From: Octopus vulgaris
Taxonomy: Eukaryota
Reading direction: 5' to 3'
Length of the DNA stretch: 64,000 nt
NCBI GenBank assembly: GCA_951406725.2
Contig: OX597818.1
Coordinates: forward strand, 73,780,001-73,844,000
Of the stretch, positions 10,196 to 63,805 are shown in pieces; within the stretch, counting starts at the first letter, position 1, and every line of letters starts with the position of its first letter. The notes beneath the pieces are model-generated. The model searched no databases and had not been told where the DNA came from. It worked only from the letters and a program-made list of their open reading frames with translations. A program made the translations under genes and the position numbers.

Positions 10196-10446
10196 TCAGT
10201 TAAAATACATTGGCATCGAATTGGAACTTGACGTAGCGGTCTCCAGTTGAAGAAAGTTTGCTCTTTATGCCAATATTACTGTTGTGGTCCAGTCTTCAGC
10301 AAATATTGATCAGCATTGTCATTTTCTTATATTCTCAGAGGTTCACATCGTGATGTTCTCAGAGATATGGTAGTCCAGCTGATTAGGAGTAATATTACAG
10401 GCACACAGATACATACGCATGCATATATATATATATATATATATAT

Positions 10447-13128
10447 AGCAATAATAATTCTCTAAAAGGGATATAGACAGTAACTGCTCGATAACATAAG
10501 GGACTAAAGCCATCTGAATATGGCTAGGGACAGGGCAGGGTGGTGGGGGTGTTACTGTTGCATTTAGCCCCAGGCGAACATCGACGTCACCAGAAAGGCT
10601 CGACACCGTCACGGTGCCCTAAACCTGCAAAGGGAGGTAATTCCCCGATGAAGCGGAAACCACACACGGACCATGGTTTCAAGGTGTATTGCCTATCATC
10701 GGCGTGTGGTAGGCCTCCGCTTCCTCGACGAATTCTCACTATGCAGGATTTCTTATATAGATTTTCAAGCAAAATACATTTGCTGATTTCGAAAATCTGT
10801 TCGAAAGCAATAATAATTCTCTAAAAGGGATATAGACAGTAACTGCTCGATAACATAAGGGACTAAAGCCATCTGAATATGGCTAGGGACAGGGCAGGGT
10901 GGTGGGGGTGTTACTGTTGCATTTAGCCCCAGGCGAACATCGACGTCACCAGAAAGGCTCGACACCGTCACGGTGCCCTAAACCTGCAAAGGGAGGTAAT
11001 TCCCCGATGAAGCGGAAACCACACACGGACCATGGTTTCAAGGTGTATTGCCTATCATCGGCGTGTGGTAGGCCTCCGCTTCCTCGACGAATTCTCACTA
11101 TGCAGGATTTCTTATATAGATTTTCGAGCAAAATACATTTGCTGATTTCGAAAATCTGTTCGAAAGCAATAATAATTCTCTAAAAGGGATATAGACAGTA
11201 ACTGCTCGATAACATAAGGGACTAAAGCCATCTGAATATGGCTAGGGACAGGGCAGGGTGGTGGGGGTGTTACTGTTGCATTTAGCCCCAGGCGAACATC
11301 GACGTCACCAGAAAGGCTCGACACCGTCACGGTGCCCTAAACCTGCAAAGGGAGGTAATTCCCCGATGAAGCGGAAACCACACACGGACCATGGTTTCAA
11401 GGTGTATTGCCTATCATCGGCGTGTGGTAGGCCTCCGCTTCCTCGACGAATTCTCACTATGCAGGATTTCTTATATAGATTTTCAAGCAAAATACATTTG
11501 CTGATTTCGAAAATCTGTTCGAAAGCAATAATAATTCTCTAAAAGGGATATAGACAGTAACTGCTCGATAACATAAGGGACTAAAGCCATCTGAATATGG
11601 CTAGGGACAGGGCAGGGTGGTGGGGGTGTTACTGTTGCATTTAGCCCCAGGCGAACATCGACGTCACCAGAAAGGCTCGACACCGTCACGGTGCCCTAAA
11701 CCTGCAAAGGGAGGTAATTCCCCGATGAAGCGGAAACCACACACGGACCATGGTTTCAAGGTGTATTGCCTATCATCGGCGTGTGGTAGGCCTCCGCTTC
11801 CTCGACGAATTCTCACTATGCAGGATTTCTTATATAGATTTTCGAGCAAAATACATTTGCTGATTTCGAAAATCTGTTCGAAAGCAATAATAATTCTCTA
11901 AAAGGGATATAGACAGTAACTGCTCGATAACATAAGGGACTAAAGCCATCTGAATATGGCTAGGGACAGGGCAGGGTGGTGGGGGTGTTACTGTTGCATT
12001 TAGCCCCAGGCGAACATCGACGTCACCAGAAAGGCTCGACACCGTCACGGTGCCCTAAACCTGCAAAGGGAGGTAATTCCCCGATGAAGCGGAAACCACA
12101 CACGGACCATGGTTTCAAGGTGTATTGCCTATCATCGGCGTGTGGTAGGCCTCCGCTTCCTCGACGAATTCTCACTATGCAGGATTTCTTATATAGATTT
12201 TCAAGCAAAATACATTTGCTGATTTCGAAAATCTGTTCGAAAGCAATAATAATTCTCTAAAAGGGATATAGACAGTAACTGCTCGATAACATAAGGGACT
12301 AAAGCCATCTGAATATGGCTAGGGACAGGGCAGGGTGGTGGGGGTGTTACTGTTGCATTTAGCCCCAGGCGAACATCGACGTCACCAGAAAGGCTCGACA
12401 CCGTCACGGTGCCCTAAACCTGCAAAGGGAGGTAATTCCCCGATGAAGCGGAAACCACACACGGACCATGGTTTCAAGGTGTATTGCCTATCATCGGCGT
12501 GTGGTAGGCCTCCGCTTCCTCGACGAATTCTCACTATGCAGGATTTCTTATATAGATTTTCAAGCAAAATACATTTGCTGATTTCGAAAATCTGTTCGAA
12601 AGCAATAATAATTCTCTAAAAGGGATATAGACAGTAACTGCTCGATAACATAAGGGACTAAAGCCATCTGAATATGGCTAGGGACAGGGCAGGGTGGTGG
12701 GGGTGTTACTGTTGCATTTAGCCCCAGGCGAACATCGACGTCACCAGAAAGGCTCGACACCGTCACGGTGCCCTAAACCTGCAAAGGGAGGTAATTCCCC
12801 GATGAAGCGGAAACCACACACGGACCATGGTTTCAAGGTGTATTGCCTATCATCGGCGTGTGGTAGGCCTCCGCTTCCTCGACGAATTCTCACTATGCAG
12901 GATTTCTTATATAGATTTTCAAGCAAAATACATTTGCTGATTTCGAAAATCTGTTCGAAAGCAATAATAATTCTCTAAAAGGGATATAGACAGTAACTGC
13001 TCGATAACATAAGGGACTAAAGCCATCTGAATATGGCTAGGGACAGGGCAGGGTGGTGGGGGTGTTACTGTTGCATTTAGCCCCAGGCGAACATCGACGT
13101 CACCAGAAAGGCTCGACACCGTCACGGT
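10447..13128 (-). repeat. Tandem array, 7 full + 1 partial copies of a 359 bp hammerhead-containing unit (retrozyme-like)
   Basis: Units start at 10447, 10806, 11165, 11524, 11883, 12242, 12601 and 12960. They appear identical except one A/G site (G at 11126 and 11844). Left flank is (TA)n. Confidence 0.97.
10659..10710 (-). ncRNA. Type I hammerhead ribozyme (variant core CCGAUGA), repeated every 359 bp, 7 copies
   Basis: Minus strand: accacacg CCGATGA t-agg-caataca-cct-t GAAA CCATGG TC cgtgtgtggt. Stem I cacacg/cgtgtg is extended by gaagcgga/tccgcttc, and stem III is the palindrome CCATGG. Predicted cut after GUC, between 10669 and 10668. Confidence 0.8.
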
Positions 13129-13272
13129 ACCTCCCTTTGCAGGTTTAGGGCACCGTGACGGTGTCGAGCCTTTCTGGTGACGTCGATGTTCGCCTGGGGC
13201 TAAATGCAACAGTAACACCCCCACCACCCTGCCCTGTCCCTAGCCATATTCAGATGGCTTTAGTCCCTTATG

Positions 13273-13276
<4 letters not shown>
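13128..13276 (+). repeat. Inverted partial copy of the 359 bp unit capping the array
   Basis: 149 bp reverse complement of unit positions 10491-10639, followed by (TA)n. Confidence 0.95.
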
Positions 13277-18512: not shown

Positions 18513-20035
18513 ACTTAACTTAGAATAACTTAGAAAGCTTTTGGCCAGTACTGGCCCAGGCCATGTCTAACTTAATAGCACCACCTGGCGAAGTATTTCA
18601 ATTCAGGATTTGGGCACCGAGGCCCATTCGAGCAGAGAGTTATTGTTTGCGGAGACATATCCGGGTGTGGGTGGTTTGTCCGGGACTGTTTGAAGGAATT
18701 TTTCCAAAGACTTCTTGAATTTTGTTAGGTCAGTTTCTGTTTTGACGTGTCCTGGTGTAATGTTGAAGAGAGCGGGTCCAGTTGAGGTGAAATAATTGTG
18801 CCGTATTGTCGTTATGTGATGCGATTTAGATTTTTGTTGTGGACGGATGGCACGGGTCCAAGCCTTGGATGTATTTTGAAGGTGATGCCAACATCATTCG
18901 GACAGTGCTGATGGAATATGTTCCACATCATACAGATAATGTAGCGTTCACGTCGCCGTTGGAGTGAATACAGTTTCAGCTTCTCTAGTCTACCCCAGTA
19001 GTCAAGGTCTGACATGCCATCTATCTTTTCTGTGATTAACCTTTGGGGAGCTTCAATTCTCATAATATTTTGTTTTGTGTAGGGAGACCACAGTGGACAG
19101 CGGTATTCGAGGTGGGGTCGGGCAAAAGTGAAGAAGAGAAGGATAATAGTGTGGGAATCTCTCGACTGGAAGGTTCTGAGAATCCAGGAACACATTCTGC
19201 GGGCCATGTCAACTTTGCTGCTTATATCTGTAGCCCAGCTTATGTTATTGTCCACTGTTACTCCCAAGTCTCTGATGTTGTTGGACGCCATGAGAATTTC
19301 TCCAGAAGGAAGGGAGTATGGGAGTTTCAGAGCGTCCTCCCTTCCAAAGTGGATCAGTTCGATTTGTCTTCGTTTAGCAACATGTTGTTCTTTTCCGCCT
19401 ATTGGACAACAGCCAGTAGGTCTGACTGAAGGCTTATTCGGCCATCCACGCCATTGATGACCTTCTGGAGCTTGGAATCATCAGCAATAGTTCTGATGTT
19501 ACTGTGTTTGATGGTGTCAGTAATATCATTTATGTAGATGATGAAGAGAAGTGGGCCCAACACAGTGCCTTGTGGAACACCACTGCTGACTTTGGCTGGG
19601 CTGGATTTGACTCCTTCGACTACAACATGTTGGCTTCTGTTAGACAGGAAGCACTTGATCCACTGCAGCAGCTTTCCAGTGACACCAATATTGGACAGCT
19701 TTCTCAAAAGGATCTCATGATCAACCCTGTCAAAGGCCTTGCTGAAATCAAGGTAGATGACATCAGTGTTGGAACCCTCTCCCAAGGCTCTCAAAATGTC
19801 ATCAAAATGATGCAGTAGCTGCGTCAGGCAATCTCTTCCATTACGGAATCCATGCTGGTTGGAGTTCAGCATATTATGACTTTCAAGGAAGTGAGTCATA
19901 CGCGATCTCAGCACTCTCTCAAATACTTTAATGATATGAGAGGTGAGTGAGATTGGACGGTAATTCACGGCAAGCGATTTGTTTCCTTTTTTGAAAACTG
20001 GGACAACAGACTGGGATAGAAGGTCTTGTGGTATT
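18512..20035 (-). mobile_element. 5'-truncated CR1/L2-group LINE (RT domain + 3' end)
   Basis: NYRPISLTS..KVFER, QHGFRNGRDCLTQL, YLDFSKAFDRVDH, GVPQGTVLGPLLFIIYIND, IADDSKL, RDLGV, RPHLEY..PLWSP; frameshifts; short (ttctaag/ttaag) repeat tail; (TA)n flanks. Confidence 0.92.
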
Positions 20036-22599: not shown

Positions 22600-22795
22600 A
22601 TTGAGAACCACTTGCCATCACCAACCACTGATGACCGGTCAATACCCAAAAACTCGGGTCCGTGTGTATCACGTCAGGTTGGAGATGGGAAAGATGACTT
22701 CCATTTGCCAATACTGAAAGGGCACAGAGAGTGTGTCAATAGCCAGCTAGAGGAAATGTCTCCATGGGGCTACAAGCTACAGTAGCATCACATTT
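22600..22795 (+). mobile_element. Diverged single relative of the 359 bp unit, degenerate hammerhead plus downstream domain
   Basis: cca CTGATGA ccggtcaataccc AAAAA CTCGGG TC cgtgtgt, then gacttccatttgc...agggcac...gtgtc...tggggcta..gctacagtagca, colinear with the array minus strand. Confidence 0.7.
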
Positions 22796-23614
22796 AGGGG
22801 GTAAATATAATTCTTGATGACATGAAGGTACTGTTAATACTTCGCTCAGAAATTTATTATTAATTGATTAATATTTTAGAAATATATATTTACACTGAGT
22901 ATTTAGACACTGTCCTTGTTTTTGATTTAAGATTTTCTCCGATCGTATAATAAGATGCTTTTGTATCCAATTTTGTTCATTGCATGCAACTGGTTATTGT
23001 GAAGACCGTTAGTTGAAAGGACCAATTAAAAGAAGACATTTTCAATTATGTATCCATTAAACTAATTGTATATGTTCGCATATAACCCTATTTTGTTCCA
23101 TTTTAAACAAAAATGTCCGACGAACAGGAACGTGAAATATATATATCAGTATTCGCAGCACTGGTCTGCATAACTACCGAACATCAATCGGCAGTAAATC
23201 TTTCAATCTATTAAATGTATATCAGAACTCACCTTCGGATGAGTCGTTAGTAACTTGTCATCTACGAATTTCAGCCGACTGTTCTGGATACCTCTTCGAA
23301 GATCAGATGGAAGATGTCCGTGAGGACTTTGTTCTTAGAACCCACTCAAGATAAATGGGCGAAGAGGAATAAGATGAGATATTTTGTAGTATTATTTCCA
23401 CTGCGTAGCACTTCTCGTACCTCTCTTGAAATGGAAATATTAGGTGTCCATTTTATTTCTGTTCGAGTGTGTGTATTTTTGTGTGTGTTTATATGATGTG
23501 TAAATGTGTGTGTTAATTGCCAACCATATCCCATTACTTCCATGTGTAATTTTTCAAGAATATAATAAAGGTGTCTTAATTCTATTGTTATTACACCATA
23601 GTTGAAATTTGTGA

Positions 23615-60340: not shown

Positions 60341-60402
<62 letters not shown>

Positions 60403-61066
60403 CTAAGTCTCTCTAAAGGAGACTAAGGCAGCATTACAGGATATCAATAGTTATCGCCAAGCTAACATTACAGTCCAGGACTATAGGACGAATGCTATCG
60501 CTGATTAGCTCCAAGAGGCCATCGCTTCTAGCAATCTATGTGACATCCAGACCAGCAAGGTGAGGCGGCTGACCCCTCCTGTTCGAAGGTTATAATGGAA
60601 ACAGGTTCGTGCGTCACATAACTAGCTAGAGGCGATGACCTCTTGGAACTAATCAACGGCAGCATTCGTCCTATGTTCATGGACTGCCTTGTTAGCTTGG
60701 CGATAACTATTAATATCCAGTACTGCTGCCATACTCTCCTTTAGAAAGACTTAGAAATATTAATATTTCTATTTTTGAAAACCAGTATATGTATTCCACT
60801 GAATTTAGGTAAATAATCCTTCGAACAGACGGTCAGTAGTGACGCCTGTTGAGTTCGGCTGCTCTACATTCATAAGGGGTAAATAGCCCGAAACTAGTCT
60901 GTACATGCCAGACAAGCAAAGCGGCTGACTTCCCCTGTTCGAAAGTTATAATGGACACAGGTTCGTGTGTCACATAGCTAGTTAGAGGCGATGGCCTCTT
61001 GGAGCTAACCAACGGCAACATTCGTCCTATTTTCCTGGACTGCCATGTTAGCTTGGTGGTAACTAT
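60403..61066 (+). mobile_element. About 356 bp-unit element (relative of the 359 bp unit) with inverted 5' arm
   Basis: 60403-60546 is inverted versus 60613-60756; direct repeat 60565-60710 / 60921-61066. Decayed hammerhead taca TTCATAA gggg taaata gccc GAAA CTAG TC tgta at 60865-60903. Confidence 0.8.
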
Positions 61067-63040: not shown

Positions 63041-63117
<77 letters not shown>

Positions 63118-63118
<1 letters not shown>

Positions 63119-63805
63119 TTAGTGAGCGAGCAGAGCATGCCATCAAAGTGACACTTGTGTAAAATATACGAAGCCCAGTATATCCATCATGACTACCCGT
63201 CTGATAAGGGTACACCAGGCACATTATTCTTCTTCTTATTATTATTATTATTGAGTGAGAGAGCAGTTCGTGCCATCAAAGTGACACTGGGGTAAAATAT
63301 ACGAAGCCCAATATACCCATCATGACTACCCGTCTGATAAAGGCACACCAGGCACATGCATCACAACCATGTGTGCGCGACATGGTGATCTCATATCAAG
63401 ATAAACAGCACATGACCTTGCAGGTGGGGCCCAGTTAGAATTTTCTTCAGGTTGAGTAGCCCATCCCGCTCAAACGGTCCCTGAATAAGGGTTGTTTAAG
63501 GATGTTGAAAGAACCACCCATGTTTCCAGAGGTGAATTATTCAAACCCCAAAGAATTCCTCTCAACACATGGCTATGATGCTCCCCCACTACTTCTGCTC
63601 GTGATCAGAGATGCACATATCGTCAGCCACTAAGGGACAAGCTCAACTGGTTAAGGTCAAACAACTGACAAGCAAATCTGTGGTATTGAGCAGAATATTT
63701 GCTGTAGCCCATCTTTTATACCAAGACAAAACAACGTACATGATAACATTTCCAATCAGTTAAGATCAGAAGCCATGAGAGCCATTGCCTGGTACTGCAT
63801 CAGGG

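Follow-up and report, generated by a model that had tools for sequence, protein, structure and literature searches.

A covarying two-hairpin segment behind the hammerhead ribozyme in retrozyme families of Octopus vulgaris

Hammerhead repeat families that carry the segment

A 64,000-nt stretch of the Octopus vulgaris genome (contig OX597818.1, positions 73,780,001 to 73,844,000; hereafter the window, numbered from its first letter) contains three sites at which a segment of about 90 nt follows a hammerhead ribozyme. A sequence-only reading of the window proposed that this segment is a multiway-junction RNA element under selection, which raises the questions of what carries it, how it folds, and what it might do. 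The motifs and pairings described in that reading are present at the positions given there. The segment, which had been placed 25 to 35 nt past the cleavage site, was measured to start at +31, +37, and +29 relative to the predicted hammerhead cut in families A, B, and C, respectively.

These three sites represent three abundant hammerhead repeat families with a unit of ∼350 nt. They are non-LTR retrozymes: the unit is noncoding, tandem, and within the 150 to 450 nt of that class, and a pattern for the core and its stems finds one type I hammerhead in every unit. They resemble the metazoan non-LTR retrozymes of Cervera and de la Pena (2020, PMC7229834), noncoding tandem units of ∼350 nt (350 to 390 bp in mussels) with one type I hammerhead each, for which PLEs were proposed as mobilizers. 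In contrast, the cited parts of that work contain no cross-family helix-level fold, no module like the hairpins P2 and P3 described below, and no fixed copy ends, while circles and cleavage were shown there and the octopus families are known from sequence alone. Retrozymes and their link to PLEs are already published. In the main texts of openly accessible papers, our literature search found no description of the shared helix-level fold with P2-P3 or of octopus retrozymes.

Family A forms an array of 7.5 units of 359 bp that are 99% identical (10447 to 13128, minus strand). The type I hammerhead core, in which stem III is short and palindromic, recurs in every array unit; in the last unit (10669 to 10702, minus strand) the core is a CCGAUGA variant with a predicted cut after 10669. 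The P2-P3 segment occurs in all 7.5 units and in the second, inverted arm of the insertion (13129 to 13276, plus strand), which terminates on (TA)n at the copy end called E1 below. Genome-wide, 192 matches to family A were listed, and those shown are 99 to 100% identical; family A is young. The family B copy (22628 to 22861, plus strand) is decayed and ends near the second copy end, E2; its hammerhead lies at 22628 to 22660, P2 at 22721 to 22737, P3 at 22741 to 22771, and the 5′ strand of helix P6 at 22779 to 22786. A decayed family C copy (60818 to 61066, plus strand) ends at E1, with the hammerhead at 60869 to 60899, P2 at 60954 to 60971, P3 at 60976 to 61006, and the P6 5′ strand at 61012 to 61019. 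Ahead of it is a partial C unit (60570 to 60773, plus strand) with P2, P3, the P6 module, and the E2 region. This unit provides a second copy of the C segment (60570 to 60670), accompanied by an inverted piece, the inverted arm of the insertion (60383 to 60548, minus strand), which spans P3 to E2. The window copies of B and C are 86 to 91% identical to the best-scoring other copies, and a first look at the 2.8-Gb genome yielded 1,754 candidates for B and 1,945 for C.

Two patterns built on the second hairpin matched 168 and 1,541 times genome-wide, and their reversed controls did not match at all (0 and 0). Clustering of the matches gave families A, B, C, D, E, F1, F2, and H (the F2 consensus was built from 13 fragments), and A3, a sister family of A, was recovered from the loose ends of contigs. 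Monomers are 349 to 359 nt long in eight families, and the superfamily with the P2-P3 segment comprises at least nine. The loose ends of sequencing runs contain several further P3-bearing sister families, some of them absent from the assembly sample.

The segment was also searched for from the hammerhead side. A hammerhead pattern matched 4,413 times versus 275 times in the control. In 12 of the first 29 distinct loci of this search, R1, our covariance model of the P2-P3 segment, matched with an E value of <0.001 directly behind the hammerhead that had been sampled, and in 2 more a match of this quality lay at another place in the locus; the positive loci include clade K, which lies outside the training set. 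In 20 further regions, selected to favor other hammerhead types, the module was present in 4. Family X (L505 to L534) is an abundant hammerhead family unrelated in sequence, with 1,734 first-look candidates and both tandem and inverted copies, and R1 found no match in 20 of its loci (best E value, 0.23). Since family X spreads without an R1 match, not every element of this kind requires the P2-P3 module. In a fold of six family X copies, a similar position is taken by a small hairpin and a long bulged one.

Further hammerhead families unrelated in sequence were seen, namely, Y (L488/L496) and Z (L486/L498/L478). Within the superfamily, the core consensus of C, H, and A3 pairs a U at position 3 with an A at position 8, a compensatory change (60869 to 60875 in the window); D and F1 vary at positions 6 and 7, and A has a C at position 4. 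The Rfam hammerhead models gave no score for the unit cores found by pattern.

Fold and conservation of the segment

In our structural model, the segment consists of the hairpins P2 and P3 and one half each of two long-range helices, and it sits on the central junction of a unit-wide fold of ∼350 nt. In the last unit of the family A array (all on the minus strand), the 5′ part of the segment (ACYUCCC, 10624 to 10638) is modeled as the 3′ strand of a long arm that bears the hammerhead, with a predicted partner at 10742 to 10747 in circular folds; complementary upstream partners, read from the folds, are family specific in A, B, C, D, and H. P2 (10602 to 10618) has 5 to 7 bp and a variable loop, and four of its six pairs have changed on both sides. 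P3 (10566 to 10600) is built from a lower stem of 4 to 5 bp, an asymmetric internal loop, an upper stem of 5 to 6 bp, and a GAUG-containing loop. The 5′ strand of helix P6 (ACRGYARCA, 10551 to 10558), in which five of eight pairs have changed on both sides, ends the segment. Its 3′ strand (10477 to 10484) closes the helix ∼70 nt downstream around P4, P5 (10509 to 10524, with a 6-nt loop), and the small hairpin P5b (10487 to 10498), and the unit is completed by the P7 3′ strand and tail (10447 to 10463). In A and A3, P4 is replaced by an unpaired C-rich tract of ∼24 nt (10525 to 10550). We first considered a closed three-way junction joining the two segment ends and abandoned it, as each end covaries better with a partner outside the segment. 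Of the multiway-junction element originally proposed, the separate closed junction is thus lost, while the selection is upheld by covariation and by the conservation of P3.

Across 26 real copies from ∼12 families, 92% of cells pair, with family A, which is misaligned across P3 in this alignment, scored against the pairs. Changes on both sides are found in 11 of 17 pairs, a count that overstates the number of events because copies within a family are not independent. None of 500 shuffled alignments reached the covariation score and four reached the pair count, a significance that this control overstates since related families share pairs by descent; sliding the partner strand gave 36 to 57% pairing. 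In a held-out hammerhead sample of 26 model-aligned matches, whose rows were fitted to the model and seven of which are weak, 11 of 17 pairs were again changed on both sides. Furthermore, when the inner stem was left unconstrained in the pattern, all five of its pairs were present in 99 of 120 distinct octopus matches versus 0 of 61 distinct matches in metagenomes. The latter came from a scan of 78 loci that found no relatives outside the octopus genome and served as the chance control. The covariation first read from three copies was thereby recovered on a larger set. Together with G-U pairs on the sense strand, it points to selection at the RNA level and supports a structured RNA element under selection.

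These data also bear on the idea that the segment acts in DNA, as a promoter or enhancer for the next unit. A TATA-like box (11111 to 11119, minus strand) precedes a candidate transcript 5′ end at 11088 by 30 nt; this end is that of one contig, whose loose letters resemble an adapter. In tandem arrays P3 lies ∼195 to 230 bp upstream of the next candidate start, a distance like that of snRNA distal elements. The two-sided changes and G-U pairs preserve the stems and not the sequence, however, and we regard a DNA-level element as very improbable. AT-rich boxes occur at the equivalent aligned place in other families. Contigs from eight runs, which we guess to be RNA, cover the unit, and two of them join units head to tail, a joint that tandem DNA would give as well; the contigs are compatible with transcription and with circles.

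Outside the segment the units had been called barely alignable, which was not confirmed: the consensuses of seven families can be aligned over their full length, with 45 to 73% identity. Mean identity among them is 0.63 in the segment and 0.50 in the rest, with the hammerhead at 0.62 and with P5 (0.67) and P7 plus tail (0.65) as conserved as the segment. The claim that the segment is more conserved than the rest of the unit applies to P3, in which 13 of 36 columns are invariant versus 45 of 308 elsewhere (P = 0.003), and not to the segment as a whole (22 of 95 versus 36 of 249, P = 0.075). P3 is the only part clearly above background and the most conserved window outside the hammerhead. A and A3, which are 76% identical overall, share an exactly identical 37-nt stretch over P3, while P2 is altered on both sides.

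The modest contrast over the whole segment, the homology and similar folding of the entire unit, and the loop nucleotides that differ between clades would all suit a folding scaffold, in which the hairpins hold the circle in a compact shape with its hammerhead and start sites correctly folded, and in which similarity mostly reflects shared ancestry. The excess conservation of P3, its unpaired positions kept within large clades, and the 37 nt shared by A and A3 argue against this reading, which we think unlikely.

The P3 upper stem is predicted with pair probabilities of 0.86 to 1.0 in six families, 0.42 to 0.78 in A, and ∼0.3 in the sole A3 copy in single-sequence circular folds. At the family level P3 occurs in five upper-stem and three lower-stem forms. 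The unpaired bases vary between clades (bulges AG, UUU, UU, and GA; CU/UG versus CA/UA; loops of 3 to 7 nt), as does the size of the internal loop (2 to 4 by 1 to 3 nt). This variation argues against a catalytic core and limits the sequence specificity of any binding site.

A second, undescribed self-cleaving or ligating ribozyme had been among the functions suggested for the segment, which adjoins a known ribozyme and keeps its unpaired bases within clades. Rfam gave no match in the whole window at the gathering score and nothing relevant at permissive thresholds for the window family A and 14 loci of other families. Over the segment, no ribozyme or small-RNA model matched (HDV-like, twister, twister sister, pistol, hatchet, hairpin, snRNA, SRP, and 7SK), in keeping with the earlier impression that it does not fit HDV or twister. 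Below threshold, the matches were for the most part to miRNA models, located on repeats or at inversion junctions, and none was to a ribozyme. Readings as HDV, twister, pistol, or a split hammerhead were tried on both strands and discarded, with no Rfam match and no conserved GAAA in the segment. Twister-sister-like ribozymes have an internal loop of 5 by 6 nt (PMC11620745) with a conserved CA, which P3 lacks. The active family A alters the bulge and loop, clade K alters the CU/UG step, and no copy ends cluster in the segment. We therefore consider a second ribozyme extremely unlikely. SINEs with a Ceph or CORE domain have a tRNA-derived head followed by the central domain (PMC5786205); the retrozyme units contain no Rfam tRNA match.

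Copy ends and autonomous PLEs

Mapped 3′ ends of copies from seven families fall largely (152 of 169) into two clusters, E1 at ∼+160 to 179 and E2 at ∼+205 to 240, neither of them inside the segment. In the last unit of the family A array, E1 (∼+175) is in the loop of P5b and E2 (∼+220) abuts (TA)n at 10423 to 10447; more generally, E1 falls in the small-hairpin loop and many E2 ends are directly on (TA)n. The ends lie 61 to 120 nt 3′ of the segment, and the distance from the end of P3 to E1 is ∼61 to 75 nt in six families. A run of 4 to 5 U lies within ∼10 nt after E2 (∼+221 to +235) in all seven family consensuses.

The window insertions have inverted arms, and the family A insertion ends at E2 on one arm and at E1 on the other. 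Two fixed 3′ ends, an inverted 5′-truncated arm, and a microsatellite target, the footprint of PLE mobilization, are thus all present. The PLE tail and inverted arm were described by Craig et al. (PMC8557442), and the tail corresponds to the interval that separates two internal RT starts (Frangieh et al. 2024, PMC11167929). In the anole Poseidon element PAc studied there, two internal starts likewise leave a tail of 30 to 40 bp, both strands of an AT-rich target are cut, and the template region lies just 3′ of the hammerhead. PAc differs in being autonomous and in starting within a stem-loop, rich in AC, inside its own ORF. The corresponding gap between E1 and E2 is ∼44 nt in the retrozymes and 56 nt in the octopus element PLE2, and the PLEs tested contain nothing equivalent to P2-P3.

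Three young autonomous families with an RT and, at the C terminus, a GIY-YIG domain were found in the octopus genome: PLE1 (1,025-aa frame), PLE2 (1,312 aa), and PLE3 (781 aa). Their Cys-rich linker makes them Neptune/Nematis type by the definition of PMC8557442, an assignment made from this feature and without a tree. All three end on (TA)n. PLE2 has a hammerhead variant, and 44 of its 46 ends are at ∼+127 and +183, most of them on (TA)n; the variant hammerhead and two fixed ends make it a good candidate mobilizer.

PLE2 is very young, with many intact frames of 1,310 to 1,312 aa (e.g., L195, G000:C5:115840523-115845895; L191 to L220). Its terminal repeat carries the variant hammerhead, the two fixed ends are inside the start of the ORF, and it offers a ready enzyme for in vitro work. 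PLE3 (L439 to L448) has two overlapping frames, of 479 and 781 aa, and a single end cluster; CCAAT- and CRE-like boxes recur in its 3′ region, which also contains a TATA box. PLE1 (L171:2471-5545, minus strand; L141 to L170) has an unusually long (∼1.1 kb), microsatellite-rich 3′ region that ends in an abundant repeat, and a scan of this region found no canonical hammerhead.

P2-P3 is absent from PLE1 to PLE3, as judged with our models. R1 did not find it in six PLE1 and PLE2 loci (best E value, 1.3) or in the PLE3 terminal region. In 30 plus 16 GIY-YIG loci R1 gave four strong matches, all to separate retrozyme copies, which lie 1.3 to 4.6 kb away from the ORF or domain and in two cases on the opposite strand. 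A tblastn search with four PLE proteins against 287 loci returned, at the level of the match list, scattered fragments only and no PLE ORF joined to a retrozyme. The PLE2 terminal repeat folds by eye into a junction similar to that around P6, with E1 in a hairpin loop, and reaches E1 ∼48 nt sooner, about the size of P2 plus P3. R2, a model of the P6 module, did not match this repeat (its best PLE2 match, E value of 3.8, is elsewhere); the likeness is a lead only. A by-eye likeness to the PLE1 3′ UTR was likewise set aside, as R1 did not support it.

The retrozymes thus show no similarity to the terminal repeats of PLE1 to PLE3 by R1 or R2, with Naiad and Poseidon types lying outside the sample. 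Vertebrate retrozymes (Li, Clavereau, and Pollet 2026, 10.64898/2026.07.22.740005) are similar in being nonautonomous partners of PLEs. In Xenopus, 24 of 57 retrozyme families match known TEs, mostly PLE termini, whereas the octopus families match none of PLE1 to PLE3. Because three PLE families are fully covered and Naiad and Penelope/Poseidon types are unsampled, a partner that carries P2-P3 may exist.

Candidate roles of the P2-P3 segment

The reading that we tentatively favor is that P2-P3 may serve as a handle to which a protein binds, most likely an RNA-binding protein of the host, and thereby aid the copying of the noncoding RNA in trans by a PLE RT. The retrozyme unit would be transcribed, cut by the hammerhead, and probably circularized, as has been shown for coral, mussel, and axolotl retrozymes. 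The PLE protein would nick both strands of (TA)n, and reverse transcription would begin internally at E1 and E2, both of which lie 3′ of the segment in the P6/P5/P7 region. P2-P3, between the ribozyme arm and this start region, would supply stabilization and delivery to the enzyme, a role filled in Alu by the SRP9/14-binding domain. Cutting, circularization, and PLE copying from E1 and E2 are steps that we infer.

That P2-P3 is kept across families that are 45 to 73% identical while PLE terminal repeats have no such sequence would suit a conserved host partner. Points against such a handle are the possible partner PLE beyond PLE1 to PLE3, the internal and apical loops of P3, which vary by clade and are loose for a sequence-specific site, and the spread of family X without an R1 match.

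The Alu 5′ domain (PMC12199147) is alike in function, being a structured domain of ∼46 nt that is absent from the autonomous partner and needed for trans-mobilization. It has no sequence or Rfam similarity to P2-P3, it works with a different enzyme, and octopus retrozymes have no poly(A) priming; binding in the octopus would be by analogy only. In shape, P3 is like the bulged stem-loops of similar size in 7SK SL4 and Tetrahymena telomerase stem 4, which the xRRM of LARP7-family proteins contacts at a purine bulge of two nucleotides or at a loop containing GU (PMC5175362). P3 has no Rfam match to 7SK or telomerase RNA, its bulge varies in identity, and a circular RNA would have no 3′ oligo(U), so the likeness is one of shape and serves as a lead only. 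That P3 is a host-RNP handle, a Penelope-world counterpart of the Alu domain that possibly mimics the LARP7-bound stems of telomerase RNA, is in our view distinctly unlikely. If true, a parasite RNA would be capturing telomerase's closest relative among retroelements through an assembly route like that of telomerase.

It is only slightly less likely, and plausible if on balance doubtful, that the PLE protein itself docks on P2-P3, by shape or in a partner family outside the sample, and that this sets both start sites. The minimal PLE template begins near the hammerhead cut and extends slightly beyond both RT starts (PMC11167929); in the anole element this active interval is +20 to +172 of the ORF with the cut at +26, and P2-P3 lies in the matching interval, 3′ of the hammerhead cut and ahead of the second RT start. 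The RT-recognition signal suggested in the sequence-only reading agrees with this position and is at odds with the lack of the hairpins in three autonomous PLE families. The distance of ∼61 to 75 nt from P3 to E1 in six families, the resemblance of Xenopus retrozymes to PLE terminal repeats (10.64898/2026.07.22.740005), and the small and long bulged hairpins of family X also speak for direct docking. In contrast, R1 has no match in PLE1 to PLE3, R2 misses the PLE2 terminal repeat despite the similar junction around E1, and PLE2 reaches E1 sooner by roughly the length of the two hairpins. The main point that separates a host handle from direct docking is whether the module occurs in a PLE outside the sample.

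The sole in vitro study of how Penelope-type enzymes select their RNA only brackets the binding motif. These retrozymes offer a natural alignment for this question: at least nine noncoding substrates for which the helices are modeled and two start points mapped, in a genome that also contains young intact candidate enzymes, so that helices that serve the enzyme and helices that serve the host become directly testable. A parasite-only module would explain how a noncoding circle competes with the autonomous RNA.

Two other features were observed in the window. A fragment of the C terminus of a LINE-type reverse transcriptase lies at 18815 to 19477 (minus strand) in a 221-aa open frame. Two copies of a 133-bp repeat, presumably an abundant dispersed repeat, adjoin a (TAT)n tract at 63090 to 63357.
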